Source: Promethearchaeota archaeon
GTDB lineage: Archaea > Asgardarchaeota > Lokiarchaeia > Sigyniarchaeales > SOKP01
Assembly (NCBI GenBank): GCA_048939015.1
Contig: JBHLPW010000003.1
Span: 67,628-131,627, forward strand
Direction of reading: 5' to 3'
DNA: 64,000 nucleotides
A program made the translations under genes and the position numbers. Positions 6,301-42,341 of this stretch are shown piece by piece (within the stretch, counting starts at the first letter, position 1; every line of letters starts with the position of its first letter). Under the pieces are notes generated by a model, which made no database searches, was not told the origin of the DNA, and worked only from the letters and a program-made list of their open reading frames with translations.

Positions 6301-6424
6301 TTTGAATTTCTTATTTTATTCTATTAATAATTAATTTAATAATAGAGTTGAGTATTATTTAAAATAACTGTGCGGAATTATCATTGTCATTATGAATATC
6401 CCTTTTAAAAATCTGTGAAATGAT

Positions 6425-6580
6425 ATGGGTGAAGAAGAAAAGGATTCAAAATCAAATGATCATTATCCAACAATAATATCTTACGAAGATCGAGAAATTA
6501 AAGAACAAAAACCTCCAAATGATAAAATTATTAGTTATAAAATCGTAGATGAGAAAATAAATTCAGATTCTGAAGATTAA
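6425..6580 (+). CDS. Unannotated 51-aa acidic micro-protein
   Basis: MGEEEKDSKSNDHYPTIISYEDREIKEQKPPNDKIISYKIVDEKINSDSED; fills the intergenic gap; purine-rich coding-like composition; below ORF-track cutoff. Confidence 0.5.
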   Translation: MGEEEKDSKSNDHYPTIISYEDREIKEQKPPNDKIISYKIVDEKINSDSED

Positions 6581-6609
6581 TTATCAAATCTCATAAGATC
6601 TATAGAGAT

Positions 6610-13464: not shown

Positions 13465-14193
13465 TTGAAGATGGAAATTGAAAAAATATGGAATGAGAGT
13501 AGCTGGACTAAACAGGCTCGTGATATTATAACAAATATTAGAAAATTTCCTGAAGATTCTAAGGTTATTTTGATCCTTAGACATTCTCAGAGGAATGAAC
13601 CTAAAAAGTTCAGTGTAAACGCAGACTTGAGTTTGACTCCTCAAGGTCGAAGAATTGCTTATCTTTTTGGTGAAAAACTACCAAAGAATAGATCAATTCG
13701 TGTGTTTCACAGTGATGCTGAGAGATGTAAAGACACAGCTAATGAGATATTTGATGGTTTCAAAACATTGGGTGGTGATGCCATTTTGAAGGGTTTTTTC
13801 AAACCTTTATCTCACATAGGTATTGCTGTAAAATCCTTTTTCCAAGAAAATGAAAAATATGAGATATTAGACCTTTTTTATCGATGGGTTGCTGGAGTTT
13901 ATTCTCCTACACTTTGGACTCCATTAATCACATATAGTCAAGAAGCTGGATTAATGATGTTGGAAAAAATCGATAATGCTCCAGAGGAAACATTAGATAT
14001 TCATGTTACGCATGATTTACATCTTATGGCTTTAAGATTAGGATGGTTTGGATTACATCCAGATGGAAGATGGGTTGATTACCTTGGAGGATTTGCGTTT
14101 TCGCTTTTAGAGGATCAAATAAAATTATTTGAGTATGGTGAATTTAAACCAGTAGAATATCCCTATTGGTGGAAAAACTCTAAAACAACCTAA
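13465..14193 (+). CDS. Histidine phosphatase superfamily protein
   Basis: LILRHS, LTPQG, S..RC..TA, VTHD motifs. Confidence 0.8.
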   Translation: MKMEIEKIWNESSWTKQARDIITNIRKFPEDSKVILILRHSQRNEPKKFSVNADLSLTPQGRRIAYLFGEKLPKNRSIRVFHSDAERCKDTANEIFDGFKTLGGDAILKGFFKPLSHIGIAVKSFFQENEKYEILDLFYRWVAGVYSPTLWTPLITYSQEAGLMMLEKIDNAPEETLDIHVTHDLHLMALRLGWFGLHPDGRWVDYLGGFAFSLLEDQIKLFEYGEFKPVEYPYWWKNSKTT

Positions 14194-14215
14194 TTTTAAT
14201 AAAATTATCAATAAG

Positions 14216-14605
14216 TTGAAGTTAAAAATGGATGCAAAAGAATTTATAAACCAATTGAATTATGTTCAAGAATTAATGCAAGAAGAGAATTATAAGGAAG
14301 CAATTATCATACTTGAAAAACTTAAAGAATTAGACAAAAATACAGATTTTGATTATAATCTCACTCATAGATTATACCAATTAGATTCAAATACTCGCTC
14401 ACTCTATAATCAAGAAATTATCTTGAAATTATTAACTCAACTTTCCACTAAAACTAAAAAAGTTAGTTTCGATGACTTAAAGCAAAAACTAATGGAATTA
14501 AATAATTTAGATCTAAGTGTTGATATTTTAAGAAGGGAAATTGAAATACTCATATTAAGAAATCTTTTAGCATGTAGAATTGATGGAGAATTTTTAATAT
14601 TTTGA
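14216..14605 (+). CDS. Small helical-hairpin + winged-helix protein, PCI-like
   Basis: TPR-like ENYKEAIIILEKL, then KVSFDDLKQKL...EIEILILRNLLACRIDGEFLIF; ATG 14228 is an alternative start. Confidence 0.55.
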   Translation: MKLKMDAKEFINQLNYVQELMQEENYKEAIIILEKLKELDKNTDFDYNLTHRLYQLDSNTRSLYNQEIILKLLTQLSTKTKKVSFDDLKQKLMELNNLDLSVDILRREIEILILRNLLACRIDGEFLIF

Positions 14606-14624
14606 AAAAAAATTCTGCTTTAAT

Positions 14625-17343: not shown

Positions 17344-19293
17344 ATGTCCTATCTACAGTTAAATCAATTAACAAGGGCAGAAGAACTTTTTGATGCTTGT
17401 AAGATTGATGAAGCTCTTGAATTATTAAATGATCAAAGCTTATTTGAGGGGCTTGATCTTGAGCAGAAAAGTTATTTTCAGTTTCTTAAGGGCTTGATTC
17501 TTTTATATCAACATAATATCGCAGAAACTATTAAGGTGGGTGAACAAATGCTAAAAAAAGGTCAAACATATAATGATAATGTCTACTCATTTGATGGATT
17601 ATTTTTTATTATTAATGGATTGATTCAGACTAATAAATTTGATGATGCACAAGAAAAAGTTGAAGAAGCTGAAGATTTCTTAAAACTTATTTCTACTAAG
17701 CCTAAGGATATTATAATTCTAAGAGAGGTTCGTTTAGGTTTATTAAAAGCATTGTTGAACTTTGAGTTGGGCAATTCAGATATTGCAGAAAAGTACTTAA
17801 AAAAACCCTTAGAATCTCAAAAAGAACTTGGTAATACATTGGAACTTGTTTGGGCGAATGCAATAATGGCAGAAATTATGATGTGGGTAAAAAATAGAAT
17901 AGATCCTGCTATGGAATACGCCAAGAGAGTACTATCAATCGCTAAGGAAATTAAATTTAACCATTTCTGGATTGTTATCGGTCATGCTTTTATGGGTATA
18001 ATGTATCATTGGATTGGGGAATTAGAGACTAGTTTAAAACATTATATAAAAACGACAGAAATACTTAAAAAATTTAAAAGCGATTTTTGGATGGCAAGGC
18101 AGCTAAATAATACAGGACTCTTGTATGCTGATCTTGGCGATTATGAAATGGCTTTAAAATGTCTGGAGGAAGCTTTAATATTATATGAGCGAGATCCCCT
18201 CCTAACTATAGAAAGTCCTATTTCTAGTATAATGACTGTAGCTTTTAAGAAGGGAGATACTGAACTTGCTCAAAAATATTTTCAACGCTTGGAAAATATG
18301 TATAAACAAGCACCAACTAGTCATATCGAATTTCTATATAAATATAATAAAGCTATAATGTTGAAGAGCAGTTCTCGAATACGAGATAAAGCAAAAGCTG
18401 AAAAATTATTTAAACAAGTCATTGGAACAAAAAAAGAAAGTATACATATTGACGTAATAATTATCTCATGTATTCATCTTTGCGATTTACTTCTTAGCGA
18501 ATATCGCATAAGTTATAATAGCGAAGTTCTTGATGAGATTAATCAAAATGTTACTCAAATAATAGCTTTTGCTGAAAAAGCACATGCCTATCCAACTTTC
18601 TGCGAAACTTTCATATTACAAGCTAAATTAGCTTTATTAAATTTTGATATAAAAGCTGCCCGACGATATTTAACTCAAGCTCAGAAGATTGCAGAATCAT
18701 ATGAATTAAAAAAATTAGCAATGAAAATCTCAAATGAACATGATAACTTACTAAAAGAATTACGTAAATGGGAAATCCTGAGTGAATCAAATGCTAGTCT
18801 GGCGGAGCGTATTGAATTAGCCCGATTGGATGATCAGATGACTACGATGCTAAAAAAGCGATCAATAGAAGTACCAAAGATATCAAAAGAAGACCCTGTT
18901 ATGATATTAATCTTAACGGAGGGAGGTAATTTGTTATTCTCTAAGAAATTTATAGAGGATTTTTCATTTGAAGATGATATCTTAGGAGGATTTCTAACTA
19001 GTGTAAATTACATAATTAGTGAGGTATTTTCTGAAGGTCTTGATAGGGCGGTTTTCGGTCAATACACACTGCTAATGATCCCACTTCAACCATTTTTGGT
19101 ATGTTATATCTTTAAAGGGGCATCATATTTTGCTCAACATAAGATAAATACCTTTGTTACGTCATTAAAGAATGATAATATCACTTGGCAATCTCTACAG
19201 AAATTTTTCCAAAAGAGTAAATCAGTTCAATTAAATGATATCCCCTCTCTTGAATCTAAGATAATGGAGATTTTTGTTGAGAAAAAAGATTAG
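17344..19293 (+). CDS. TPR-solenoid protein with C-terminal longin-like domain
   Basis: TPRs (ARQLNNTGLLYADLGDYEMALKCLEEAL); C-terminal ILILTEGGNLLFSKKF...ILGGFLTSV resembles the longin N-termini at 4.4-7.6 kb. Confidence 0.8.
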   Translation: MSYLQLNQLTRAEELFDACKIDEALELLNDQSLFEGLDLEQKSYFQFLKGLILLYQHNIAETIKVGEQMLKKGQTYNDNVYSFDGLFFIINGLIQTNKFDDAQEKVEEAEDFLKLISTKPKDIIILREVRLGLLKALLNFELGNSDIAEKYLKKPLESQKELGNTLELVWANAIMAEIMMWVKNRIDPAMEYAKRVLSIAKEIKFNHFWIVIGHAFMGIMYHWIGELETSLKHYIKTTEILKKFKSDFWMARQLNNTGLLYADLGDYEMALKCLEEALILYERDPLLTIESPISSIMTVAFKKGDTELAQKYFQRLENMYKQAPTSHIEFLYKYNKAIMLKSSSRIRDKAKAEKLFKQVIGTKKESIHIDVIIISCIHLCDLLLSEYRISYNSEVLDEINQNVTQIIAFAEKAHAYPTFCETFILQAKLALLNFDIKAARRYLTQAQKIAESYELKKLAMKISNEHDNLLKELRKWEILSESNASLAERIELARLDDQMTTMLKKRSIEVPKISKEDPVMILILTEGGNLLFSKKFIEDFSFEDDILGGFLTSVNYIISEVFSEGLDRAVFGQYTLLMIPLQPFLVCYIFKGASYFAQHKINTFVTSLKNDNITWQSLQKFFQKSKSVQLNDIPSLESKIMEIFVEKKD

Positions 19294-20277: not shown

Positions 20278-20820
20278 ATGAATAATTCTGAGGAATTTCG
20301 ATTTAAAATAGTCGTAGTAGGAGATGGAGCAGTAGGTAAAACATCCTTAATTAAGAAATTCACGAAAGGGACGTTCGAAAAAGATTATGTAAAAACTATC
20401 GGTGCTCAGTTTTCCAAATATAACAAGAAATTTAATGGAGATGTGGTTAGATTATTATTCTGGGATATAGCAGGTCAAGATGATTTCAATTTTCTACATC
20501 ATTTATTTTATAAAGAGGCTAAAGCAGCAATCATCGTATATAGTCTTGAAGAAAATGAACTTGGTCAAAATAGTTTTACACATATAAAGAACTGGAATGA
20601 AGTACTAGAAAAAAATTGTGGACCTATTCCTGTTGTTTTATTTGCTAATAAAGTTGATTTAGTAGATGAAAATAGTTTAGATACAACAGAAATTCAACAA
20701 TTTGTTAATGAACGTAATTTTTTAACTTACTTCTTCACTTCAGCAAAAACAGGACAAGGGGTTGTTGAAGCATTTAACGCAATTATAGAGCGGTTATATT
20801 TTAAATTTAAAACCCTTTAA
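20278..20820 (+). CDS. Rab-like small GTPase, paralog of 12444
   Basis: GDGAVGKTS, WDIAGQ, NKVD, TSAK; highly similar to 12444-12992. Confidence 0.93.
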   Translation: MNNSEEFRFKIVVVGDGAVGKTSLIKKFTKGTFEKDYVKTIGAQFSKYNKKFNGDVVRLLFWDIAGQDDFNFLHHLFYKEAKAAIIVYSLEENELGQNSFTHIKNWNEVLEKNCGPIPVVLFANKVDLVDENSLDTTEIQQFVNERNFLTYFFTSAKTGQGVVEAFNAIIERLYFKFKTL

Positions 20821-20923
20821 TTAAAATTATACTTTCATTTCTTTTTCCCTTAATTGATATAAAAATTATTGGCTTTTATAAGGCTATTTTAAAATTAACG
20901 GTTAAAAGGATGTTAAATTTAGA

Positions 20924-21517
20924 TTGATTATTGACCATTCTGCGAAGAGTATTAGTATTAAAATTGTCTATTTTGGTCCCGCTATGAGCGGTAAGACAAC
21001 ATCAATTAAAGCTTTATTTTCTGAATTTGGGAAAGAAGATGAAGTATGTAGTATTGAAAGTACTTTAGAAAGAACTTTATTTTTTGATTACGGTACTGTT
21101 ACGTTTCAAAATCAAGAATGGAAATTGAAAATTCATATTTATACTACTACTGGACAAGATTTCTATTTTATTACTAGACCCGTCACTTTGCGAGCAGTAG
21201 ATGGAGTTGTTTTTGTTATCGACTCTCAGGAAGATGTTTATGAAAGAAATCTGATCTCTTGGCAGGAATTAATCGCCTATTTTAATGAATCCTTAAGTAA
21301 ATTACCCATTATCATTGCATTCAATAAACAAGATTTAGAAGAAAAATTTAACTCCATAGATTTTTTGAAGGAAATTATGTATCATAAATACAAGAATATA
21401 GATACCAGATACACAAGCGCATTAAATGGAGAAGGAATCTTAGATTGTTTCGAAGATATTCTTAGATTGATTTTAAGAAAATATTATAATCAAAAATTTG
21501 TTTCAGTAATTAATTGA
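20924..21517 (+). CDS. MglA-type small GTPase
   Basis: KIVYFGPAMSGKTT, ERTLFFDY, TTTGQ, DGVVFVIDSQ, NKQD, SA. Confidence 0.85.
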   Translation: MIIDHSAKSISIKIVYFGPAMSGKTTSIKALFSEFGKEDEVCSIESTLERTLFFDYGTVTFQNQEWKLKIHIYTTTGQDFYFITRPVTLRAVDGVVFVIDSQEDVYERNLISWQELIAYFNESLSKLPIIIAFNKQDLEEKFNSIDFLKEIMYHKYKNIDTRYTSALNGEGILDCFEDILRLILRKYYNQKFVSVIN

Positions 21518-21564: not shown

Positions 21565-22785
21565 TTAAAAAAAACTAACTTCTGAGACAGGAGATTGAAT
21601 TCGGATTCTTTGTTGACTATTATCTTCTAAGATTGAAATGAGTGCTGTAACATTTTGCTTTGTTTCATAAATGATCTCTTTCTCTTCACCCTTTTTCCAG
21701 GTATTAAAGCCTGTCAAATGTGAAGCAGTTTCAAATAATCCTTCTTGCAATCCTGAAACTAGAACAGTTACTCCTTCTAAATCATTTTTAGATATATTTT
21801 TTATATGTAATCGATACATATCAATATCAGAATCAATCGCTTCTACTTTGTAAGTTTTCTGAAATTTTGATATTCCGTCAAATAAGGACGATGCAGCAGT
21901 AGGAGTTTCTGAAAATAGATCTACACCAACCTTTTCCTCAGAAATAGGACCTGTAGAAATAGTTATTGGGATTTCAAGTTTAATAGGTTCCAAACCGTAT
22001 TCAGGTTTTTTCTTTCCTATAATTAAAAGACTCCATTTTGTATAAGCTCCATACCTGAAGCCAAATTGCTCCTTTTCTGAAGGGGACCATAAATAATTAT
22101 GACTGGGTTCAGCTACTTCTGGAACTTTTAGAAGCATAAAATCTTTTTCAAAGTTTTGTGTCCGAATATCACCTGCAATTGCAGGAGGTAATTCTTCAAC
22201 TTTACGACAATTTTGGCCATATGCTTCGCAATAACAAACCAAATTAGAGTTTTGTAGCAACCTAATTTCCAAACTTTTAAGCTCCTCCGAGGTGTAGCCA
22301 ATCTTTATAGCTTCGCCTGGTTTAAAAATATCTTTTGTTAAGAGGATATTTAACCCTGAAATTGAAAATGAAATTGGTTTTGGAGATTTCGCTTGAAGTC
22401 CAGAATTTCGTGCTTTAATTTCAATGTCATGTATTTTATTAATCATTAAATCATCTTCTGGATTAATCGGATTTGGTTGTCTTAGATTCAATTTTAGAAT
22501 ATAGTTTAAATTTCTGTTCTTTATGGTTGGTACAATATTACTTTTAATCAAAAGGGATTTTTCTCGTAGATATTCACCTGCTTCAAAATTGCCCTTACTA
22601 AATATTTCTTCTTTTGATATTTGAAGTTCTTTAGCACAAGGGGGATTAGTAATCAATTGAATTCCACTCCAATGAATTTCAGCATCTTCCTCAAATTTGA
22701 ATTTAGATCGTGTGATTAATTTATCTCCTATATAAACTACTCCGTTATTTAAGTCGGTTAACTCTAATTTTATCAAGCGAAACAT
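21565..22785 (-). CDS. Arrestin/Vps26-fold protein with extra C-terminal Ig-like domain
   Basis: VVYIGDKL, LNYILKLNLRQP and ILLTKDIFKPGEAIKI match arrestin N- and C-domain signatures. Confidence 0.6.
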   Translation of the reverse strand: MFRLIKLELTDLNNGVVYIGDKLITRSKFKFEEDAEIHWSGIQLITNPPCAKELQISKEEIFSKGNFEAGEYLREKSLLIKSNIVPTIKNRNLNYILKLNLRQPNPINPEDDLMINKIHDIEIKARNSGLQAKSPKPISFSISGLNILLTKDIFKPGEAIKIGYTSEELKSLEIRLLQNSNLVCYCEAYGQNCRKVEELPPAIAGDIRTQNFEKDFMLLKVPEVAEPSHNYLWSPSEKEQFGFRYGAYTKWSLLIIGKKKPEYGLEPIKLEIPITISTGPISEEKVGVDLFSETPTAASSLFDGISKFQKTYKVEAIDSDIDMYRLHIKNISKNDLEGVTVLVSGLQEGLFETASHLTGFNTWKKGEEKEIIYETKQNVTALISILEDNSQQRIRIQSPVSEVSFF

Positions 22786-23008
22786 GTATAATGATTATAT
22801 TTCTACTATTTGTATAAAAAGATAGAATTTTATAAAAACTTTTTATTATTAGATAAGATATAAGGAGATAACCATTCTCTCTTTTAAGCGATAATATCTT
22901 ATTCAAGAATGTCAATTTTTTTATTTGAATTAGTAATTTAAATGATAAATAATTTGAATCACCTTTAATTATACCATTTAAGACGTAATATCATAATAAT
23001 TTGGAACT

Positions 23009-23725
23009 ATGAATAAAGGTCTAGATGAAAAAATTAAAGCTATTCTCTTTGATTTAGATAATACTTTAATAGATGTTGATTTAGATAAATTTATACCCCA
23101 ATATTTACAGCTATTAGCTCAAAGTGTTGCCCATATCATTACTCCTAAAAAGTTTATTTCAAAAATACTTGAGGCATCTAAAGCTGTAGAAGAAAATAAT
23201 GGACGCAGCACTAACGAAGATGTATATGCTAATGCATTCTTTCCATTAGAAGGTCATATTCGTGAAGAAATCGAACCATTCTTTGACAATTTCTATAAAA
23301 AAGATTTCACCGAACTACGTCAGTACACTCGAAAGAAACCTGAAGCAAGATCTGTTGTTCAAACTGCTTTTGATAGAGGTTATGATGTTGTTATTGCTAC
23401 AACGCCCATGTTACCTGCTACTGCAATCGAGCAACGTTTAGAATGGGCTGATGTTGCTGACTTTCCTTACCGTTTAATAACGACTATAGAGAATAGTCAT
23501 GCTACTAAATCTTTAACACATTTACTTTATTATGAACAAATTTTAGACAAGATTGGATACCCTGCTGACGCATGTTTAATGGTTGGAGATGACGAAAAGG
23601 ATATGATAGCAGCACGTCTTGGAATACTCACTTTTTTTATTGAAGATAAAGAAACAGATTTCTCTAATCATATACCAGAGCCCACATATAGAGGGGCTTT
23701 AGCGGACTTGAAAAATATCCTTTAG
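23009..23725 (+). CDS. HAD-family hydrolase
   Basis: ILFDLDNTL, ATT, K, MVGDD...D motifs. Confidence 0.9.
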   Translation: MNKGLDEKIKAILFDLDNTLIDVDLDKFIPQYLQLLAQSVAHIITPKKFISKILEASKAVEENNGRSTNEDVYANAFFPLEGHIREEIEPFFDNFYKKDFTELRQYTRKKPEARSVVQTAFDRGYDVVIATTPMLPATAIEQRLEWADVADFPYRLITTIENSHATKSLTHLLYYEQILDKIGYPADACLMVGDDEKDMIAARLGILTFFIEDKETDFSNHIPEPTYRGALADLKNIL

Positions 23726-23735
23726 GTATATTATT

Positions 23736-23909
23736 TTATATTTTTTTTTTCCAAGTATGACCTAATTTACTCATATTATAGATTTGAGGAGGAGGATCTT
23801 CTAATAATAATTTTCCAAGGCATTTAGCACATAAATAGACTTCTTTATTTTTATCCGTAAAAAAACACATATATAAATTCTCTCGCTTTAAACAAGATTG
23901 GCATCTCAC
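23736..23909 (-). CDS. Unannotated 57-aa zinc-finger micro-protein
   Basis: GTG start: MRCQSCLKRENLYMCFFTDKNKEVYLCAKCLGKLLLEDPPPQIYNMSKLGHTWKKKI; CxxC-x20-CxxC. Confidence 0.5.
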   Translation of the reverse strand: MRCQSCLKRENLYMCFFTDKNKEVYLCAKCLGKLLLEDPPPQIYNMSKLGHTWKKKI

Positions 23910-24093
23910 ACATTAAATTCTTTTATAAAAATATAAAAATTTTGTTATCAAATTCTCAATAATCTTCTGAAAATAGACTCTCAAATTTATCCCTTTTTCC
24001 ATGAAATGTTGGTTTTATAATTATAACATAAGTTTTTTTAAACCTTAAAGTTAAATCTTAATTAAATGTTAAAATTTAAGATTTAGATACCTT

Positions 24094-25212
24094 ATGCAGA
24101 TTAAGCGTAAATTTCTCACATCGATTTCTAAACTTCTTAAAATGAGATCCTACAGGTACTTTCATTATTGTTCAATTATCACTTTTATTATCACCTCTTT
24201 TCTACTTTATTATCAGTTATTTCTAGTTAACCAGATTCAATTTAGAATATTTGCAATTGAACTATGTTATGGCTTAATGTTATTCGTTCCAATTTTTCTG
24301 ATTAGTTGGTCTTTAAAAAAAACTAGGTTTCAGTTCGATTTAGTTATGGTATTATCTGGAATTTGTGCTTATGGTGCTTATCTTGCTGATTTAATGACAA
24401 AATCAACGCCAAATTGGGGCCCTCTACGAAGTAACATTCCATTTCTAATTGGATTCGTTATATTGGGATTATCTAATATTATATCATTGCTGGATATAAC
24501 TGTCTTTATAACAAAAAAAAAAATCTTGAATCCACTTCATCAAGCAATTAAACAAAATAAGGAGAAAGAGAAGGTTCTTCATCGACAAAAGCAAGAATTA
24601 AGCCAATTTGCCCATATGATGTCTCATGATTTGCGGAGTAATTTAACATCCATAAAAGGATATCTTGAAATAATATTGACTGAATCAACTAATGAAAAAA
24701 TACAAGGAATGTTAAAAAAGATAGAGCAAATTCAGGATTTATTAGAAACCTCAGTAAAATTAGCAGATTCCGGAAAAGTAATAGATACTGCTGAAATTGT
24801 TGATTTACATGAACTTACATTAGAAGTTACTGACACAATAATCCCAAAACATATTAATTGTAACATTGATGGATTGCCTATGGTTTTAGCCGATAAACAC
24901 CGCATTTATCAAGTAATGAAAAATATATTGGAAAACGCAGTTATTCATGGTAAACCGGAATTCATTAATATATTTTCTAAACATGAAAATGGGGACATCA
25001 TTATTGTTATAGAAAATGATGGTTTTACTATTCCTAACGATTTTATTGAAAGCTTTAATGATCCAAATTTCAGTCTTGACTTTCGAAATAAAGGAATTGG
25101 ATTAAAAATTGTAAAACGGATTATAGAAGCACATAATTGGAAAATTTCAATTACCAATGATCCCCAAACCACATTTCTAATAAATATCCCTGAAACTAAA
25201 AATATTGATTAG
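24094..25212 (+). CDS. Membrane sensor histidine kinase
   Basis: 4 TM; H-box FAHMMSHDLRSNL; N-box NILENAVIHG; G-box KGIGLKIVKRIIEAH. Confidence 0.9.
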   Translation: MQIKRKFLTSISKLLKMRSYRYFHYCSIITFIITSFLLYYQLFLVNQIQFRIFAIELCYGLMLFVPIFLISWSLKKTRFQFDLVMVLSGICAYGAYLADLMTKSTPNWGPLRSNIPFLIGFVILGLSNIISLLDITVFITKKKILNPLHQAIKQNKEKEKVLHRQKQELSQFAHMMSHDLRSNLTSIKGYLEIILTESTNEKIQGMLKKIEQIQDLLETSVKLADSGKVIDTAEIVDLHELTLEVTDTIIPKHINCNIDGLPMVLADKHRIYQVMKNILENAVIHGKPEFINIFSKHENGDIIIVIENDGFTIPNDFIESFNDPNFSLDFRNKGIGLKIVKRIIEAHNWKISITNDPQTTFLINIPETKNID

Positions 25213-25227
25213 ATATCATGTTTCTAA

Positions 25228-25803
25228 TTAACTAGAAATTTCTTTAATTTCTTGATATCTAAAACAATCTATAACATGATCATTAACCATCCCTACTGCT
25301 TGCATAAAAGCATAACAGATGGTTGGACCCACAAATTTAAATCCTCTTTTTTTCAAATCTTTACTCATCTGTTCTGATTGTATAGTTTTGGATGGCAATT
25401 CTGAAAGCTCCTTAAATTTGTTATCCATTGTTTTATTATTAACAAATTTCCAGATATATTTATCAAATGATCCAAATTCCTTCTGTACATGTAAGAACGC
25501 TTTCCCATTTGCGATTACTGCATTAATTTTAAGTCTGTTTCTTATTATCCCTTCATTCTGCATTAACAATTCCACTTTTTCTTCGGAATATTTTGCGATC
25601 TTGATGTAATCAAAATTATCAAAAGCAGTTCTGAAGTTTTCCCTTTTTTTTAAAATTGTACTCCAACTTAATCCCGCTTGTGCTCCTTCCAATATTAAAA
25701 ATTCAAAGAGAAGGTGATCATCGTGAATAGGAGTACCCCACTCTTTATCATGATACTCTATCATCTGTGGGTCATCGCCAGCCCATGCGCATCTTTTAAC
25801 CAT
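25228..25803 (-). CDS. tag: DNA-3-methyladenine glycosylase I
   Basis: RCAWA, YHDKEWG, LEGAQAGLSW, IIRNRLKI, FKFVGPTICYAFMQAVGMVNDH. Confidence 0.96.
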   Translation of the reverse strand: MVKRCAWAGDDPQMIEYHDKEWGTPIHDDHLLFEFLILEGAQAGLSWSTILKKRENFRTAFDNFDYIKIAKYSEEKVELLMQNEGIIRNRLKINAVIANGKAFLHVQKEFGSFDKYIWKFVNNKTMDNKFKELSELPSKTIQSEQMSKDLKKRGFKFVGPTICYAFMQAVGMVNDHVIDCFRYQEIKEISS

Positions 25804-25914
25804 TCCTATCACATTTGTATTTATGATCCCAAATAGTTAACAAATTATTAATTTCTTTAAAAAAAATAGAAATAGATTAAAAAATTTAATTATTGAATTC
25901 AATCTTTGATGATA

Positions 25915-26475
25915 TTAATGTTCCTCTAAGTATACAAAGCCAATAATGATAAGACTTATCAAAAATCCTCCACCTAATGCAATGAGAAAGTAATGAGAAT
26001 AAAGTGATGTAAAGGTAGATGGTGCTTCAGATGTGATTGCGACAATGACAATTGTATAAATAAACAACCAAAAAAATGTCGTTGGAGCTAAGGCATACAA
26101 ATAGACGGTTGTTTCATCAAACTCTATACCTTTTATTAATTTTGCAGCACCAGGTATAATAAAGCATAAACTCCAAAAAATGATGTTTACAACCATAAGT
26201 GTAATTCTTGAGTATGTATAGGCCAATAGTGCAGTATTAATAACGAAAGTTGAAAATGCAATGAAAATACCGCCGATAATTAATAACATTATTCGCCGAT
26301 TTCGAATTGATAATCCTCTATAAAGAACTATAAATCCTACAGGGATGAAAATAACTGGGATAGGTAATAAGACGAGTGTCATTATGGAGATTGGGATTAT
26401 TGGAAGAAAAATCGTCCCTATAACAAGAAGAATTATACCAACTTTAACCTTGGTTTCATCTTTTATTTTAACCAT
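25915..26475 (-). CDS. Multi-pass membrane protein
   Basis: About 6 hydrophobic segments; ATG 26475 follows GAGGG. Confidence 0.7.
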   Translation of the reverse strand: MVKIKDETKVKVGIILLVIGTIFLPIIPISIMTLVLLPIPVIFIPVGFIVLYRGLSIRNRRIMLLIIGGIFIAFSTFVINTALLAYTYSRITLMVVNIIFWSLCFIIPGAAKLIKGIEFDETTVYLYALAPTTFFWLFIYTIVIVAITSEAPSTFTSLYSHYFLIALGGGFLISLIIIGFVYLEEH

Positions 26476-26686
26476 GGAAAGACCCTCTCGTATTTCAATT
26501 GTAATATATAGCAATTGCTACTAATGAAGTCAATATTAAATCCTTATTAAAATCTATCTAAAATTCTATGAAATGAAGTTTAAAAAGGATAGATAATATG
26601 AATTTCTAAAATCTTGATTTAACTTTAACAATTTTAGCTTCAATTATAAGTATATTCCTTACAATAGCTTCATTATTTGTCAATTC

Positions 26687-27574
26687 TTATAGATACGCTT
26701 TAGATGCATTTTCTGTAATTGCGTCTACTACTTTCGGTCCCACTTCTAAAGGGATACTATGACCCATCCCTTCAATAATTAGCAATTCTGCTCCAGGAAT
26801 TGCTTCCGCAGTATCTTTGCCTCCTTCAGGTGGCACAAGAGGATCATCACTACCATGAATTACAAGTGTAGGGGTCGTTATAGAAGTCAGGTTTTGCTTA
26901 CGATTTCCGGTAGCCAATATTGCTGCTAATTGGCGAGAATAACCCGGACGATAATCTGACCGATCCAACGATTCTATGGCCAGTCGTCGGGCTCTTTCTT
27001 CATCAAAAGGAAATCCAGTACCATAAAGAAGTCGCGCAGCATTCACAAAATTATCAATAATTGCTTCGCGCTCAATTGGTCGTGGTTGAATTAATACTTT
27101 CATTGCCTCTGGCTTTGGACGGGGTAAATCGGGATTACCTGTACTACTCATTATAGATGTAAGAGATAAAACACGAGATGGATGTCTATATGCAACTGTT
27201 TGAGCAATCATCCCCCCCATAGACGCACCACAGATATGAGCTTTATCAATATTTAAAGCATCAAGAAGTCCAACCGCATCGTCAGCCATATCATTTAATG
27301 TATATAATGATTCAATTTTTTCTCCCGTTGCTACTTGCATATATAATTTCGGAAGGTCTGGTTCTCCTGCTTCATCAAATTTTGTAGATAGACCTACATC
27401 TCGATTGTCGAACCTGATTACAAAAAAACCTCGTTCTACAAATTTCTCACAAAATTCTTCTTCCCAACTAATCATTTGACCACCAAGCCCCATAATAAGC
27501 AATAAGGGTTTTGAAGATGGATCCCCAAATGTATCATACTCAATTTCAATATTATTAGCTTTAACTCTTGGCAT
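26687..27574 (-). CDS. Alpha/beta hydrolase
   Basis: FDNRDVGLS, GASMGG nucleophile elbow, HGSDDPLV, GMGH. Confidence 0.93.
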   Translation of the reverse strand: MPRVKANNIEIEYDTFGDPSSKPLLLIMGLGGQMISWEEEFCEKFVERGFFVIRFDNRDVGLSTKFDEAGEPDLPKLYMQVATGEKIESLYTLNDMADDAVGLLDALNIDKAHICGASMGGMIAQTVAYRHPSRVLSLTSIMSSTGNPDLPRPKPEAMKVLIQPRPIEREAIIDNFVNAARLLYGTGFPFDEERARRLAIESLDRSDYRPGYSRQLAAILATGNRKQNLTSITTPTLVIHGSDDPLVPPEGGKDTAEAIPGAELLIIEGMGHSIPLEVGPKVVDAITENASKAYL

Positions 27575-27697
27575 TAGTTTATTCCTCCTTTCATAGCTTA
27601 AATTAAATTTAAGATTTACATACTTTTATAAGTTTTGAATGAACTTAGGTTTTAAAAAAAGATATAAAGAAAATTGAATTTATTGAAATTTTACAGA

Positions 27698-28606
27698 TTA
27701 ATCTGTGTGTGCAGAGATAATTAAATCGGCAAAAAGCTTCATGTCATTTAGTAACATATTTAATTTATCTTGCGAATCTCTGTCTAATTCTCCAGATTTC
27801 ATAACAAGTACAGAAATGATGTATTTGAAAATGTGAAGTTCAATTTCTTTCCCATCTCCGTCTCGACCTCCAAATTTTGCAGAATCTGCCATAAATATAT
27901 TTTCTCTAACTGTATTGCAAGCATTAATAAAATCCCTTAAGTCTCCCCTTAATGTTAATCCACTACTAACACCTTGGACATTATGCACGATAACATTACC
28001 TGAAATATCAGCAATAATAACTTTAGCCTTAATCTCATCAAGCTGTTTCTCGGCTTTTTCTACGTGAGATTTTAATTCAGCATACTCAGAAATTAACACA
28101 TCTCTGAAAACTTTTGCTAATTTGTCCTCCTCATATATACTTGTTAACATATAGTCAAAATCGTAATCTTTAAACATATCCAGGAAAATATCCTTAGCAT
28201 TTTTAACGTTTGTATCAAGTAATTCTTTCTGATAATCTTCTGTATCATACTTATGAAGGAATAAGAAGATCTTTGGTTTCTCATTGTTCTTACGGTATAA
28301 ATCCAATAAATTTATGAAATATTCTTTTGCCTCTTCAAATGTATTTGGATCGTGTAAATCAACAATTGGAATTAGAATATCAGTTCCTCTAAAGATTTCT
28401 GGTTTTTCCATATACTCTTTACGGAACTCTTCTTGCCCACCAAAGTCAAAAATTCCTACCTGTAAGCCTAAAAATGGATGTCTTCTTGTTTCATAAAGAA
28501 TTGTTGGGGCTAATCCTTTTGTATCTTCTGGTCGTTTTGCAGCAAAGGCAACTGAATAAACTGATGTTTTTCCGCAACCAGAAAGTCCAATTAAAGCAAT
28601 TTTTAT
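27698..28606 (-). CDS. Rag/Gtr1-like GTPase with C-terminal roadblock-like domain; apparent ATA start
   Basis: Frame extends 65 codons upstream of the track ATG: IKIALIGLSGCGKTS...PT...FDFGGQ; HKYD (G4), TSIY (G5); SD AGGTGA 6 nt before ATA; in-frame TGA just upstream. Confidence 0.85.
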   Translation of the reverse strand: MKIALIGLSGCGKTSVYSVAFAAKRPEDTKGLAPTILYETRRHPFLGLQVGIFDFGGQEEFRKEYMEKPEIFRGTDILIPIVDLHDPNTFEEAKEYFINLLDLYRKNNEKPKIFLFLHKYDTEDYQKELLDTNVKNAKDIFLDMFKDYDFDYMLTSIYEEDKLAKVFRDVLISEYAELKSHVEKAEKQLDEIKAKVIIADISGNVIVHNVQGVSSGLTLRGDLRDFINACNTVRENIFMADSAKFGGRDGDGKEIELHIFKYIISVLVMKSGELDRDSQDKLNMLLNDMKLFADLIISAHTD

Positions 28607-28696
28607 GATTTTTCACCTTTTTTGCTTTTCAGTTTTTAATATTTTTTATAATAATTTATTTCATTTAACTTTTTTAATAAAATTTGATTTAGATTT

Positions 28697-30187
28697 TTAT
28701 TCTTTTGGTGCTATTTTTAGTGTTCTGGAAAAAATCTTACCAAAGTCTTCAGTTGAAGCTTCAACTAATACATTTGCTTTAATAGGTTCGCCATCTGATC
28801 TATTCATGGGATATCCAATTTCTATTGTTTCATATGGAAATAATTCTCTTATAGTTGTTATCCATGGATTTTTCTCAAAAAGTTCTTCCACGGTGACAAT
28901 CCGTATTTTCAAATCTTCTAAAACATATCCTATAGTATTAGTCAGTGATATGTTAAGAATTTGTTCATCTTCATTTAAATCCTTATTCACGCTTAGAAAT
29001 TTTCTTGCTCCTAGAGTGGGTGCGCCTCCTGCTTGTTCTGTTTCTGGTCTAGTTTCAATTCTTGGTTCTTCTTTTTCTTCAGAATCACGCACAATAAAGA
29101 CTTTTCTTTTTTGTACGGTGTATTGAGAGACTTTTTTAAGCTTTGCTAAGAACAAAACTGCATTTAAATTAATAGTGTTAAAAGGTTCTATTTTTAAATA
29201 ACCCTTTTCAGCAGCATCTTCCATAATTTCAGCACCAATACCACTTCTAGCAAAGACAGTATTTTTATTTGCGCCAGAACCTACACTACCTACACTAATA
29301 TCGGCGTTTTCAGCAGTTAAATCTGTACAAAAATTGCAGCTTGATGATTTAAATTTATCTAATTGCTTAATAGTATAGGATTTTACAGGTTCACCTTGAG
29401 GATCATAATAAAGGTGAAATTTCCCTTTATTGATATCCATTTTTTGCACCTTTGATAGATCAATCCCCTCTTTTTCGAAGAAAGGATAAATAGCCTCAGG
29501 AGCAAATGAATCCATACAGAATAAACCAATCTTTAGAACATGACAACGCATAAAATACTTTAACATACCCATTGGGCTATCGAACATTTTTGAAACGGCA
29601 TCGATATTACATGGAGTTCCTACGAAGGCAATTGATCTAAAATCTTGGCGTACAGCATCCATTAAAGCCTCAACAGTTTGAGAATGACTATAAATAGAAC
29701 CCGAAGATTTAATAGCATCATCTTTACTTGTAATAATTTGAGCTACCGGATGCCAAGGATTGTTTGGATCTTTCATTGTAACAACGGCAGCATCGATTAA
29801 ATGCTCATCAAATAGATAGCATAGTAAACTTGTTACAGTTCCACCATCTTGACCCCCAATAACTTCAGGAATATTTGTATTTGCTACATAACCTGTTTTA
29901 AATTCTCCCATAAGTTGATAAGGGTCTGTTATAGTTCTTGGACACTGATTATAACAGATACCACAACCAGTACATTTACCAATAAGTTTAGGTTGCCCTG
30001 CTATATCATCCCATTCTAAGACAGGACAAACTGCGGCACATGTTCCGCATTCAGTGCAGATACCTGTGCGTACAATTTCCTTCATTAACATACCAAAAGA
30101 ATCTTTCTTTCCCTCCAACTTCTTCTGAATAAATTCAAAAGAGTATTCATATGGAGTTTCAGTTTGTTTTGGTTTATCTTCAGTCAT
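28697..30187 (-). CDS. FrhB/FdhB-family (F420-hydrogenase beta-like) protein with ferredoxin and extra C-terminal domain
   Basis: CTECGTCAAVCP, CTGCGICYNQCP, QDGGTVT, VGTPC, GLFCM, CNFCTD, ADISVGSVGS; about 120-aa C-terminal extension. Confidence 0.88.
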   Translation of the reverse strand: MTEDKPKQTETPYEYSFEFIQKKLEGKKDSFGMLMKEIVRTGICTECGTCAAVCPVLEWDDIAGQPKLIGKCTGCGICYNQCPRTITDPYQLMGEFKTGYVANTNIPEVIGGQDGGTVTSLLCYLFDEHLIDAAVVTMKDPNNPWHPVAQIITSKDDAIKSSGSIYSHSQTVEALMDAVRQDFRSIAFVGTPCNIDAVSKMFDSPMGMLKYFMRCHVLKIGLFCMDSFAPEAIYPFFEKEGIDLSKVQKMDINKGKFHLYYDPQGEPVKSYTIKQLDKFKSSSCNFCTDLTAENADISVGSVGSGANKNTVFARSGIGAEIMEDAAEKGYLKIEPFNTINLNAVLFLAKLKKVSQYTVQKRKVFIVRDSEEKEEPRIETRPETEQAGGAPTLGARKFLSVNKDLNEDEQILNISLTNTIGYVLEDLKIRIVTVEELFEKNPWITTIRELFPYETIEIGYPMNRSDGEPIKANVLVEASTEDFGKIFSRTLKIAPKE

Positions 30188-31869: not shown

Positions 31870-33468
31870 TTAATTATTTTCTAATTCAAGTCTTTCCTCA
31901 ATTTTTTTTATTGCATTTGAAGCATGAATTCGTACTACTCGATGGAAATCATTCACTCTTTTAACCAAAGCATTAAGCACTTGTTCATCACCATAATTTT
32001 CTAATAATTTTATAATACTTAATTTAACTTTGTAGTTTTCACTTTCCTGTGTTCTCAAATGATCAGCAATAATTGTAATATATTTAATTAATGTCCTCGT
32101 AATTTCTTGCGTTTCATCTTTCACTTTATACCAATTTCTTTGAAATATATTGTTTACGGCATCTATAGCGACTTTTTTTAGAAGCCAATAAGAATTCTCA
32201 TCCTGTAAAATTTTGAGTATGTCTTCTAGAGGATCGATGCATCCAATTTTACCTAAAGCTATTAATGTATTCTTTCTTACATCTAAGTTCCTGACTTCAA
32301 GTAATTTACATAATGGTACGATAAATTGTTCCTTACCAATCTCACCAAGAATAAATGCTACACTTTCCCTGATAGTATTATTATCTTTTCTCAGAGAATC
32401 AAAGAGATAATCAAAGGAGGCATCATTATTAAAAAGATATATATTTTTTATAGCATCCAAAACATAGAGCTTCATATCTAAATCAGTATATTCAAAACTA
32501 ATGTCCTCAATATCTAAAACATTAATTAGCTCTGGGACTGCCGAGATATCTCCAATTTCTCCTAAAGCTTCAATCGCGGCTATGCTTACTTCATTATAGA
32601 TATTATCTAAGTTAGAAATCAGAAAATCTAAAGATTCCTTCAGTTTCAATTTTCCACATAAAACAATAGCATTCTTTTTTACAATGAAATCATCGATTAA
32701 TAATAATTTTACAATATCTTTTTCAACATTCTTTCCTAAGATTGATAAAATAGTTATCACAGCATCAACTAAACTAGAATCTTCTTCTTTCAAAATCTGG
32801 GTGATATTCTCCAGTAAAATATCTTTATATTTAATTAAATTTGTTAAGATTTCAGGATATTTCTTCTGAATAAACCCTATATCCTCAAAAGAAACATTTA
32901 TGCTTGATAATTCAAAACCAATTAATCTTAAAAACTCTAATTTATGTTCGTTAGAAAATCGTTTATTTTTTAATGAAATTAATAATAGATTTATTAATTT
33001 GTCTGGTTGTAAACTTAATAATTGAATTGAAACATATTCTTTGATTGATTTGATTTTTGTATCTAACTCATTTATAAAAAGATTTATCTCAGATTCCTCA
33101 AATCGAGTTTTATGTATCGCTTTTAATACAGCAATTTTAATGTTATAATCAAGTGATTCTTGGGTTAGTGCCCAATTTAAAGGTTTCAAAGCTTTTTCAT
33201 ATTTCAAATTGCCTAAGGCTTTTGCAGCTTCACATTTTATATCAGTTACATCATCTGAAATTAATAAATTTTCAAATATTTCAAAGCATTCATTTTTTAA
33301 AGGGATTGAATTATGACTAATCAATCCTAAATATTTAATTGCTTCTTTTCGCTTATTATTATCCTTTTCTGATTCTATGATTTCTGTTAACATACTCGCG
33401 GAATTTTTTAATCCAAATTCTTCACTTCTCTGATATATTTCACGAGGCTCAATTTTTGTTTTTAACAT
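31870..33468 (-). CDS. HEAT (PBS-lyase-type) repeat protein
   Basis: Repeated AAKALGNL, AAIEALGEIG, VAFILGEIG, LIALGKIG. Confidence 0.88.
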   Translation of the reverse strand: MLKTKIEPREIYQRSEEFGLKNSASMLTEIIESEKDNNKRKEAIKYLGLISHNSIPLKNECFEIFENLLISDDVTDIKCEAAKALGNLKYEKALKPLNWALTQESLDYNIKIAVLKAIHKTRFEESEINLFINELDTKIKSIKEYVSIQLLSLQPDKLINLLLISLKNKRFSNEHKLEFLRLIGFELSSINVSFEDIGFIQKKYPEILTNLIKYKDILLENITQILKEEDSSLVDAVITILSILGKNVEKDIVKLLLIDDFIVKKNAIVLCGKLKLKESLDFLISNLDNIYNEVSIAAIEALGEIGDISAVPELINVLDIEDISFEYTDLDMKLYVLDAIKNIYLFNNDASFDYLFDSLRKDNNTIRESVAFILGEIGKEQFIVPLCKLLEVRNLDVRKNTLIALGKIGCIDPLEDILKILQDENSYWLLKKVAIDAVNNIFQRNWYKVKDETQEITRTLIKYITIIADHLRTQESENYKVKLSIIKLLENYGDEQVLNALVKRVNDFHRVVRIHASNAIKKIEERLELENN

Positions 33469-40820: not shown

Positions 40821-42341
40821 ATGGTTCAAATTACAAATAATTTAAGTTTCAATGGGATATCTCCAAAAGAATTAATGGATGCTACCTATGCGGCGGTAGA
40901 AAACTTTCAAATTCGCGCTTTCTTTGAAGCAAAGGATGAAATTTTAGAAGCAGGGAAATATACTGAAGATGAGTTTTATGAGTTTTTAGATGCGATGATT
41001 AATGCTGAAACAGAGCGTAAATTAGTACTAAATTCCTTAAAAGGTAAGAAACCGTTGTTTTTAGATGAAATTGCAGAAATAATAAATGGGTTTTCACCAG
41101 AAAATGTAATTTGTGATGTTATTTATCTTAAAGAACAGGGTTATATTGAAGAACTTATCGAAATTAAAACTAAAACTGTTATCAAGAAAATAAAGGGAGA
41201 AGAAAAAGAAGTTGAAGAAAAAGAATATTTCTACAGGTATCAAGTAAAAGATGTTCCTGAGGATTTCATGGAACATTTTTTTGAACCAGTTTCTATTGTG
41301 TTTGATTCTGGAGTATGCTGTCAATGTGGATGGTGTTCATCAATTTGTCCTGTAAATGCTATTTCAGTGACAGCAGATACTTTGGAAATAAATGATGAAA
41401 TATGTATGAAATGTGGTTTATGTTACTCTGTTTGTCCAAGATCATTTTCGATAGAACAAGCAGGTAAGAGTATAAATAAACTTAATAAAACATTAGAGTT
41501 TTCAGAAAAAATTAATGGTTATATTAATACTTATAGTGCTAGTACCACTAAAGATAGTATTAAAAAAGTAAGACAAGATGGAGGGATAGTTACTTCACTC
41601 TGTCAATATCTCTTAGATAATAATCTTGTTGATGCGATTGTAGCAGTACAACATTCGGAAGAAAAATGGAAACCTGAACCTGTTATTGTGGATGATTTAA
41701 AAGATTTATATAAAACTGGAGGCACAAAATATGCAAACGCATCAACTTTAGCTATTATAGATAATACTAAGAAATACGATAAAATAGCTGTTGTAGGAAC
41801 TCCATGTATGATGAATGCTCTTGAAAAAGGTAGTCTTTTTCCAAGTGGAGTATCTTTTTTCAAGAATATAGAATATAAGATTGGTCTTTTTTGCATGGAA
41901 TCTTTTCCATATGGAGGAGTACTTGGGTTAATTAAAGAGCAATTTAATCAAGATTTCAATAAAGTAATAAAGATGGACATTAGTAGCGGCAAATTTATCA
42001 TTTATTTGGATAATGGAGAAGACTTAAATGTTCCACTAAAAGATGTAAAATCATATGCCCGTCGTAATTGTCATTTTTGTGAGGATTTAACAGCAGATTA
42101 TGCAGATATATCCGTTGGATCGATTGGATCTGGAAGTGGATGGTCTTCTGTTATAACTCGAAATAAGAAAGGTGAAGAAATTTTTAAGGGAGCTATTAAG
42201 GCAGGATTAATAGAATCTAAAAGTTTAAAGGATGTTAAGCCAGGACTATCCCTATTAGAAAGAATTGCTGGTACAAAGAGAAAAAATTGTAAACCAATTG
42301 ATTTAAAGAAAGAAAAAGAAAGGAGTGACAATCATAACTGA
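40821..42341 (+). CDS. FrhB-family F420-oxidoreductase beta subunit with N-terminal extension
   Basis: CCQCGWCSSICP, CMKCGLCYSVCP, QDGGIVT, VGTPC, GLFCME, CHFCED, ADISVGSIGS. Confidence 0.88.
   Translation: MVQITNNLSFNGISPKELMDATYAAVENFQIRAFFEAKDEILEAGKYTEDEFYEFLDAMINAETERKLVLNSLKGKKPLFLDEIAEIINGFSPENVICDVIYLKEQGYIEELIEIKTKTVIKKIKGEEKEVEEKEYFYRYQVKDVPEDFMEHFFEPVSIVFDSGVCCQCGWCSSICPVNAISVTADTLEINDEICMKCGLCYSVCPRSFSIEQAGKSINKLNKTLEFSEKINGYINTYSASTTKDSIKKVRQDGGIVTSLCQYLLDNNLVDAIVAVQHSEEKWKPEPVIVDDLKDLYKTGGTKYANASTLAIIDNTKKYDKIAVVGTPCMMNALEKGSLFPSGVSFFKNIEYKIGLFCMESFPYGGVLGLIKEQFNQDFNKVIKMDISSGKFIIYLDNGEDLNVPLKDVKSYARRNCHFCEDLTADYADISVGSIGSGSGWSSVITRNKKGEEIFKGAIKAGLIESKSLKDVKPGLSLLERIAGTKRKNCKPIDLKKEKERSDNHN

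Follow-up and report, generated by a model that had tools for sequence, protein, structure and literature searches.

A shared Ig-like tail domain on proteins encoded around a Rag-type GTPase gene in Asgard archaea

The window analysed here is a stretch of 64,000 nucleotides (nt) from a Promethearchaeota archaeon of the Lokiarchaeia type (G000:C32:67628-131627, in an assembly of 4.86 Mb with 30% G+C content), and its subject is a C-terminal domain, hereafter the tail, that is found both on an FrhB-family iron-sulfur flavoprotein and on an arrestin-fold protein encoded on either side of a Rag/Gtr1-type GTPase gene. All three genes lie on the minus strand. The flavoprotein (28697..30187; 496 amino acids (aa); 209 homologues with the tail region) consists of a catalytic core of a 2x[4Fe-4S] ferredoxin domain and the FrhB N and C domains (residues 39-337, 29177..30073), a charged and poorly conserved linker (residues 338-394, 29006..29176) and the tail (residues 395-496, 28700..29005), a predicted immunoglobulin-like (Ig-like) beta-sandwich that belongs to no Pfam family. 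Its stop codon (28697-28699) is followed on the same strand by a spacer of exactly 90 nt (28607..28696), as read from the sequence, and by the frame of the GTPase, which runs from 28606 (27698..28606; 302 aa). The arrestin-fold protein (21565..22785; 406 aa; 425 homologues) comprises two putative arrestin-like lobes, as aligned by VIA-align and Foldseek (residues 1-280, 21946..22785), and a tail (residues 305-406, 21568..21873) whose core, residues 320-390, is matched by hidden Markov models (HMMs). A preliminary description, made by eye, had already placed the frhB gene 90 nt ahead of the Rag-like gene and in the same orientation, which is exact, and had proposed that the two tails are alike.

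The shared tail domain and its carriers

Compared directly, the two tails of the window give no significant similarity. BLASTP returns 10 bits (E=70), although in the register that had been read by eye, and phmmer searches with either tail against the open reading frames (ORFs) of the same genome recover only the query itself, with no paralogue. Both results would fit a reading in which the resemblance arises by chance between beta-rich sequences of similar composition, but the profile comparisons contradict it. With alignments of 135 FrhB-tail homologues and 120 arrestin-like homologues, hhalign pairs the tails with a probability of 74% (P=2.8e-5, 66 columns), keeping the by-eye register. Among the 12,032 ORFs of the window's own genome, the set used for all genome-wide tail searches, an HMM of the FrhB tail detects a protein encoded on contig C122 (E=1.2e-7), and the arrestin-like tail is then the best sub-threshold match. 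This C122 protein is a third carrier that lies outside the window, P0259 (349 aa; G000:C122:4947-5996, equivalent to L001:4947-5996; 370 homologues), in which a longin domain is followed by a helical region, a disordered linker and the tail; the FrhB and longin-family tails compare in hhalign with a probability of 96.8% (P=2.7e-10). When the FrhB and longin tails are combined and compared with the arrestin-like tails, the probability is 82% (P=1e-5) and the score 33.7, whereas 100 column shuffles of the arrestin-like alignment score 11.4 on average (standard deviation 2.1) and 17.1 at most. The combined HMM finds the arrestin-like tail genome-wide at E=0.0097.

The strongest evidence comes from a survey of 301 Asgard genomes in 30 families (labelled f1, f2 and so on, with loci labelled L001 onwards). 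In this survey, a profile made from FrhB tails only reaches E values of about 1e-10 per genome against the arrestin-like orthologues in G017 and G076. In the loci of five other families, arrestin-like orthologues, which match the full-length family HMM at 1e-64 to 1e-77, have tails that match the combined FrhB and longin tail HMM at E values of 1e-8 to 1e-12. Furthermore, a second-round HMM to which seven of these distant arrestin-like tails were added, none of them from this archaeon's own family, finds the arrestin-like tail of the window at E=1.4e-6 (27.6 bits, residues 320-390) among the 12,032 ORFs, with the next ORF outside the family at E=0.33. It is these intermediates from other families that settle the question. 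By profile comparison the homology of the two tails is confirmed, as had been proposed from the alignment by eye, and the chance reading, to which we leave practically no probability, is already refuted by the shuffle control, the genome-wide E value, the intermediates and the consistent register.

Family f24 provides a fourth carrier (L037:6691-8421), an NAD(P)H iron-sulfur flavoprotein of the GltD/NfnB type with Fer4_20 and Pyr_redox_2 domains, whose tail is matched at E=8.6e-22; a NuoF/HydB-like gene is present at the same locus (L037:2345-4207). The pattern common to the four carrier types comprises N-x-[ST]-x3-L, alternating hydrophobic residues, F-E, W-x-P-x-E-E and Y-x-[LIV]-x-[IV]-x-D-x2-G, with one Asn invariant and one Phe nearly invariant across the alignment.

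With regard to its fold, the tail is, as modelled, an Ig-like beta-sandwich, in agreement with what the preliminary description had supposed. An AlphaFold2 (AF2) model of a longin-family homologue, built on an alignment of 26 sequences (17-78% identity) with a mean predicted local distance difference test (pLDDT) value of 79, presents a domain of about 95 residues with seven to eight strands, and the block means of pLDDT over the tail of the longin protein (residues 247-347) are mostly 83-92; the fold of the FrhB tail is predicted from this homologous domain. VIA-align superposes residues 243-344 on a GH2 Ig-like domain (6d50_A) with Z 9.9 and a root-mean-square deviation of 2.5 Å over 94 residues. 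Against 48,161 PDB chains the tail resembles generic Ig-like domains, with many similar scores and none outstanding, and GH2, FnIII-like and HAP2 domains all reach Z 9-10. Searches for a named family returned no Pfam match at E<=10 for FrhB residues 338-496 (159 residues, tail included) and noise for the longin family in a PDB sequence search. When 1.84 billion representative proteins were searched with a single sequence, the tail relatives retrieved were all FrhB-type; two long repeat proteins, of the cadherin/DUF285 and GspH-like kinds, also emerged and were treated as spurious beta-repeat matches. The tail shares its fold with the generic Ig-like domains of the E-set type (GH2, DUF3244; Z 9.9) and no sequence relation with them by Pfam or PDB search. 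It also differs from them in being placed C-terminally on a flexible linker of cytoplasmic proteins and in having been found so far in Asgard genomes only.

The linker ahead of the tail is poorly conserved or disordered both in FrhB (residues 338-394) and in the longin protein (residues 215-242), and residues 279-321 of the arrestin-fold model, which precede its tail, are of low confidence. When 30 tails are placed in a tree, those of the arrestin-like proteins come together in a single clade across families (support 96/88), and tails cluster by host protein and never by organism, which argues for fusions that are old and maintained rather than for recent exchanges.

The tail-bearing heads and the Rag-type GTPase

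The head of the flavoprotein is a member of the FrhB/FdhB family, with FrhB_FdhB_C (137.7 bits) and FrhB_FdhB_N (72.5 bits) both above the Pfam cut-off and Fer4 alongside them over residues 39-337, and with conserved iron-sulfur ligands and flavin-site motif. In an alignment of 18 orthologues from 8 Asgard families (core identity 46-93%), the 12 cysteines of three clusters (C44/47/50/54, C72/75/78/82 and C193/224/284/287) and the Q113-D-G-G116 motif are invariant, as are the further motifs GxPC, GLFCMD and SCxxCxD. Distant orthologues retain 46-56% identity in the core, compared with 21-37% in the linker. Judged from these residues, the head looks like a working enzyme under selection and not like a degenerate sensor; with its cluster ligands and QDGG kept throughout, FrhB may be a target rather than a sensor. 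The genome encodes CofE, CofD and CofG, with a likely CofH adjoining, so that coenzyme F420 is probably made by, or available to, the cell.

In its domains, ferredoxin domain and cluster ligands, this protein is like other members of the family, such as the beta subunit of the F420-reducing hydrogenase, FpoF, the N-terminal domain of Fsr and the FrhB proteins associated with Hdr/Mvh complexes. Unlike these, it carries 160 residues of linker and tail, and its gene is accompanied by that of a GTPase instead of a hydrogenase or dehydrogenase partner. Across the genome a NiFe-hydrogenase large subunit is matched just once, on a different contig (C95), which bears out the earlier remark that hydrogenase partners are missing near frhB. 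The same holds for the remark that the second FrhB of the window (40821..42341, plus strand), which belongs to an HdrA/MvhD/HdrBC-type cluster, is tail-less: it terminates 35 residues beyond its FrhB_C domain and is matched by no tail HMM. Such an Hdr/Mvh-type cluster with a tail-less FrhB lies near the tail-bearing genes here (38.3-47.1 kb) and likewise in f4, f10 and f20, and Fer4/HdrA-like, FlpD and FrhB2 genes adjoin them in L032, L033, L035, L036 and L045.

The head of the longin protein (residues 20-135) is modelled by AF2 as beta-beta-alpha-beta-beta-beta-alpha, the order of a longin fold, with pLDDT values of about 73-93, and 63 in a basic loop. Its structural matches are 6nzd_H (Z 10.4, 144 residues), 8fw5_B (Z 10.2) and a SEA-complex chain (Z 9.6), with Z 9.9 for Sec22 and Z 8.9 for a Lokiarchaeal longin. 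The first of these entries contains FLCN-FNIP2-RagA-RagC-Ragulator, and its chain H is presumably FLCN, by the chain order; the second contains GATOR1-Gtr, and its chain B was taken as NPRL2 by its length and by chain assignments in the PDB profile matches. On this model, the best-matching folds are therefore the longins of the FLCN complex and NPRL2. Strand 2 opens with an invariant Gly, G33, after which come H or Q and, in certain lineages only, a Pro three positions on. Between strands 4 and 5 lies a conserved K-S-x-R-x-K-R-R-x-G loop, whose R91 is kept almost throughout the alignment and is missing solely in the second tandem longin paralogue of f24. The C-terminal part consists of helices, linker and Ig-like tail, with no DENN or equivalent domain. 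As for a longin partner with which to form a heterodimer, tandem second longins occur only in f24 and in G144; a protein atlas gave no named neighbour for the longin family. In a complete f24 genome, the tandem longin-tail paralogues are encoded at L038:12814-13845 and 13971-14906, one of them without the Arg loop, and three Gtr1/RagA-type genes lie within 7 kb (L038:3742-4671, 6472-7548 and 9918-10820). In the window's genome, a GNAT acetyltransferase gene directly follows that of P0259 (L001:6010-6486).

The arrestin-fold protein is all-beta and has no Pfam match. No model of the arrestin clan (Arrestin_N, Arrestin_C, Vps26 or Spo0M) reaches its threshold; Arrestin_C appears below threshold in 7 of 14 orthologues, with a best E of 0.0024, and a PDB profile search gives ARRD-6 at E 0.047 and 0.61. 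The AF2 model, made with 24 close homologues, is of low confidence (pLDDT 50). With this pLDDT-50 model, the top Foldseek hits are VPS26C, ARRD-6, VPS26 and TXNIP, and VIA-align scores the ARRDC3 N-lobe at Z 11.6, ARRD-6 at 10.8, Spo0M at 10.7, TXNIP at 9.6 and VPS26 at 9.4. The ARRD-6 alignment covers 216 residues and both lobes, TXNIP and VPS26 also span residues 1-280, and in these searches with the same low-confidence model only members of the arrestin clan align across that region. Additionally, the named neighbours of the protein in a protein language-model space all belong to the arrestin clan. The protein is accordingly named for its modelled fold, arrestin-fold, and not as a proven member of the arrestin family.

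Four cysteines of this protein, C50, C184, C186 and C193, are kept without exception in 14 orthologues, whose identity goes down to 27%. They stand in the pattern P-C ... N-x2-C-x-C-x6-C, and their codons are at 22636-22638, 22234-22236, 22228-22230 and 22207-22209, respectively. They form a candidate zinc or iron-sulfur site, in a protein encoded alongside a redox enzyme.

The GTPase between these genes can be assigned by its sequence to the Rag/Gtr1 family and is nearer to Rag/Gtr than to other small GTPases. Read from an ATA codon, the protein scores 89.2 bits with Pfam Gtr1_RagA (cut-off 22), and the motifs GLSGCGKT, DFGGQ, HKYD and TSIY, which include the Rag-type G4 (HKxD) and G5 (TSI), are invariant in 9 orthologues. 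A PDB profile search with these 9 orthologues has RagA (1.2e-20) and Gtr1 (2.2e-20) as the best named eukaryotic matches, ahead of RagC/D (about 1e-13) and Arf/Arl (about 1e-9); two chains whose only name is "GTP-binding protein" outscore RagA and Gtr1. The G domain is followed by about 110 conserved residues, roadblock-sized, and the alignment with Gtr2 extends, at the level of sequence, to profile position 235. A heterodimer of paralogues is not apparent, since the window's genome has one Rag match at E<=1e-40; G040, G129, G147 and G180 encode a second Rag paralogue elsewhere, and in G259 two more Gtr1_RagA genes lie nearby.

The start of the Rag gene is unusual. The list of ORFs contained just its last 237 codons, as there is no ATG, GTG or TTG between an in-frame TGA and the P-loop. 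At the initiator position, where aligned orthologues begin with MKISL, the window has ATA (28604-28606), and GGTGA (28613-28617) lies 6 nt ahead of it. In 20 related loci, the codon at this position is ATG in 7, TTG in 7, ATA in 2, ACG in 2, ATT in 1 and GTT in 1, a variation noted for the window (28604-28606) and for L006, L008, L014, L017 and L022. Most of the 20 loci have GGTG or GGAG a few bases before the initiator codon, and in the loci with codons other than ATG, GTG or TTG an in-frame stop is often found a few codons 5' of the start. This suggests that near-cognate initiation recurs on the Rag gene, and the recurrence argues against a sequencing error at the ATA of the window. When four DNA runs were compared, positions 28589-28622, which include the ATA, were covered by the probable source run alone; contigs of two other sediment runs that carry the Rag gene end at 28573, and variant contigs accumulate over 28640-28760, which suggests strain variation around the frhB-Rag spacer. 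No RNA run was found to cover the locus.

Gene order and phyletic pattern

The adjacency of frhB and the Rag gene is conserved well beyond the window. As an independent sample, a pattern search of a collection of 185,579 species yielded 76 species loci, 75 of them with an FrhB-tail gene and 74 of these with enough downstream DNA. A co-oriented Rag gene follows frhB after 71-127 nt in 69 of the 74 (93%), and two more have it at 1.4-2.0 kb. The whole set, in the order longin-tail, FrhB-tail, Rag-like and arrestin-like-tail, is encoded on a single strand in L032 and L033 (f10), L034 (f21) and L035 (f4, of the same class as the window's archaeon). FrhB-tail, Rag and arrestin-like genes are contiguous in L041 (f1, another genus), L045 (f10) and L123 (from a metagenome-assembled genome (MAG) labelled Helarchaeota), and lie inside 4 kb in L036 (f20). 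The gap between the Rag and arrestin-like genes is about 40 nt or less, or the genes overlap, in L034, L035, L041 and L045. In f24 the order is longin2, longin1, CBS and FrhB-tail, convergent with the Rag gene, and an arrestin-like gene was not found in this family.

In L035 the interval between longin and frhB is occupied by a CBS gene, and in L032 and L034 by one for a C25 peptidase; the C25 peptidases are large, of the gingipain type and with CarboxypepD_reg (L034:9059-11080 in f21 and L032:9430-12045 in f10). Genes for proteins with a CBS pair, or four CBS domains, adjoin the longin-tail gene in f4, f10, f21 and f24 (L032:13254-13889, L034:12370-12876, L035:4738-5181 and 6285-7142, L038:12368-12799), which fits an energy-sensing flavour; in the window's genome, contigs C32 and C122 carry no CBS gene. 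In f21, three tandem genes of about 425 aa follow the arrestin-like gene (L034:939-4864), and the one that was scanned ends in a V4R domain (TRAPPC3 superfamily).

The tail is present in 8 of the 30 Asgard families, namely f1 (64 of 68 genomes), f3, f4, f10 (5/5), f15 (3/3), f20, f21 (6/6) and f24 (21/21), and was found in none of the other 22 families of the survey. Of these eight families, all but f15 have a Rag-like orthologue (E<=1e-40), and all but f15 and f24 an arrestin-like one; neither was found in the remaining families. In f2, which belongs to the same order as f1, tail, Rag-like and arrestin-like proteins are all absent (0/7 each).

In the window's genus, the arrestin-like gene lies 3-6 kb downstream of the Rag gene on the same strand. 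The gap in the window (22786..27697) is filled by five genes that are unrelated to the module and encode, by Pfam, a HAD hydrolase, a histidine kinase, a 3-methyladenine glycosylase, a membrane protein and an alpha/beta hydrolase. Genes for Rab-like and MglA-like GTPases (20278-21517) converge here on the arrestin-like gene; they were rejected as parts of the module, since they do not adjoin the arrestin-like gene in the other families examined. A HEAT-repeat gene (31870-33468) was likewise set aside, having no counterpart in the loci compared (L032-L036). Upstream, a TPR protein (17344-19293, 649 aa) ends in about 120 residues patterned like a candidate roadblock or longin-type domain. Close homologues of the window's proteins come from records labelled Promethearchaeota or Lokiarchaeota. 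Others that are 74-89% identical (P0005, P0014, P0058, P0064, L048, L052 and L068) are labelled Thor-, Hod-, Hermod- or Odinarchaeota and come from one MAG series; these labels look unreliable.

A possible Rag-centred complex and its relatives

Four different heads bear one rare tail and are encoded around, and inherited with, one GTPase, for which a tail-assembled complex is the simplest mechanism. The tail would be a private Ig-like assembly or docking domain of a single Asgard GTPase module. A flexible linker would tether it to the heads, which are an FrhB-type 3x[4Fe-4S] flavoenzyme, an arrestin-fold protein, a longin protein and, in one family, a GltD/NfnB-type flavoenzyme, and the tails would gather these heads into a complex with the Rag/Gtr1-type GTPase, either at a common site on a Rag dimer or by tail-tail pairing. 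Within such a complex, the longin head with its basic Arg loop may act on the G domain in the manner of a GTPase-activating protein (GAP), the redox enzyme may connect the switch with the pool of F420/ferredoxin electrons that belongs to the Hdr/Mvh-type complexes nearby, CBS-pair proteins, in the other families that have their genes next to the module, may add an adenylate signal, and the arrestin-fold head may serve as adaptor or output. We hold a common complex of this kind, mediated by the tail and including the Rag-type protein, to be somewhat probable. The preliminary description had proposed that a shared domain ties FrhB to the Rag-like GTPase and to adaptor signalling; its shared Ig-like domain has stood, and the link with the Rag-like GTPase has turned out considerably stronger than could be told from the window. 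The tail homology and fold class, the conserved operon and the common phyletic pattern are shown, while docking by the tail and redox sensing by FrhB are functions that we infer, as we do any contact between the proteins, a GAP activity and the direction in which information would flow.

The module can be compared with the eukaryotic Rag/Gtr system and its GAP complexes, GATOR1 with NPRL2-NPRL3 (SEACIT in yeast) and FLCN-FNIP. It is like them in having a GTPase whose closest named eukaryotic relatives in the PDB are RagA and Gtr1, which shows HKxD and TSI and has a C-terminal half of roadblock size, and a partner longin that matches FLCN/GATOR1 chains and has a conserved Arg loop; the tandem longins of f24, one of them without this loop, recall a pair of one catalytic and one non-catalytic member. 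It is unlike them in that there is one Rag gene here and not an A/C-type heterodimer pair, that its longin has helices and a tail in place of a DENN or other C-terminal domain of the GAP complexes, that it lacks Ragulator, TOR and lysosome, and that a redox enzyme and an arrestin-fold protein, which eukaryotic Rag complexes do not have, are among its candidate partners. A eukaryotic counterpart of the shared tail was not found.

A recent study of Asgard longins of the FLCN/SMCR8 type (PMC12290439, Traffic 2025) has described 15 sequences, with a GAP-longin signature that combines an arginine finger with a GP motif where strand 2 begins, and has asked whether their partner GTPase is ArfR or Rag. 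The module longin is likewise Asgard, structurally near to GAP longins and provided with a conserved strand-2 Gly and an Arg; in place of GP it has G-[HQ]-x-P or G-H-x-x. That study gives no gene context, tail or redox partner for its longins, and the gene context of the module longin points to a partner GTPase of the Rag type. A structural survey (PMC10933270) described the role of Asgard Rag proteins as unknown and reported that the GTPase genes of one cultured Lokiarchaeon do not, in general, share operons with genes for roadblock, longin or TRAPPC3 proteins, which makes partners hard to predict. Full-text searches of the literature found no published description of the module.

The arrestin-fold protein is like the alpha-arrestins, Vps26 and Spo0M in its two-lobed beta-sandwich, which aligns, in the pLDDT-50 model, with ARRD-6, TXNIP and VPS26, and is unlike this clan in scoring below threshold in Pfam (best E 0.0024, for Arrestin_C) and in its extra C-terminal Ig-like tail. 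TXNIP is an arrestin tied via cysteines to a redox partner, thioredoxin (cf. the title of entry 4ll1), and the arrestin-fold protein resembles it in having four invariant cysteines and the gene of a redox enzyme as partner.

Several observations weigh against a single complex of this kind. The main one is that f15 keeps the FrhB tail without Rag-like, arrestin-like or longin genes, so that the tail must act there independently of them. The convergent Rag gene of f24 is not co-transcribed with frhB, and the arrestin-like protein is missing from what was found there; in the window's own genome the module is scattered, with five genes before the arrestin-like gene and the longin gene on another contig. 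The genomes are kin and not independent samples, and few events of gain or loss underlie the co-occurrence. With regard to the structures, the arrestin-like model is low in confidence, the match of the longin head to GAP longins lies within 1 Z unit of those to Sec22 (Z 9.9) and other longins, and the published GP motif is half present, as the Gly is invariant and the Pro is not adjacent to it.

How the parts would work together can be read in more than one way. An archaeal forerunner of the Rag hub, composed of a single Rag-type GTPase, a GAP-type longin, F420/ferredoxin-linked redox enzymes, a CBS adenylate sensor, an arrestin-fold output and a private docking domain, with a switch that reports redox or energy status, is a possibility that we hold tentatively. 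The same module could operate in the opposite direction, with Rag, longin and arrestin-fold proteins controlling the tail-tagged redox enzymes through recruitment, assembly or turnover; the tail would then be a cargo tag and the enzymes its targets. The fully conserved core of FrhB, which is that of an enzyme and not of a degenerate sensor, is in line with this direction, as is the presence of the tail on two unrelated flavoenzymes (FrhB-type and GltD-type), as would be expected of tagged cargo. Vps26 and alpha-arrestins are cargo adaptors, and the arrestin-like head, as modelled, matches their fold. However, the longin and arrestin-fold proteins are tagged too, for which assembly is a better fit than cargo selection, and a membrane or compartment signal was seen on no component; control of the enzymes by the module seems to us rather doubtful.

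An ordinary structural or self-association role for the tail, acquired separately by each protein, with a neighbourhood that reflects co-regulation with Hdr/Mvh-type redox genes, would suit the generic fold (GH2, FnIII-like and HAP2 all at Z 9-10), the lone FrhB-tail of f15 and the Hdr/Mvh-type genes that adjoin the module in several families. Yet one rare, Asgard-only sequence family on four different proteins around one GTPase gene, an adjacency of 93% and matching phyletic patterns, with the joint absence in f2, are hard to explain without a functional tie, and we consider such a role improbable.

For the many small GTPases, longin proteins and roadblock proteins of eukaryotic type that are encoded by Asgard archaea, functional partners are hard to assign, and the module provides a concrete, small and conserved set of candidates. 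For one Rag-type GTPase, the predicted set consists of a longin with an Arg loop, an arrestin-fold protein and one or two redox enzymes. As a single rare domain is found on all of these partners, and can be deleted, swapped or used as bait, the prediction is testable with recombinant proteins. If the redox link is true, it would speak to the role of Rag signalling before TOR and lysosomes. If the tentative hub reading is true, the module would define, for the first time, an input-output circuit of a small GTPase in Asgard archaea, and would suggest that Rag-longin signalling is older than eukaryotes and had a metabolic role.

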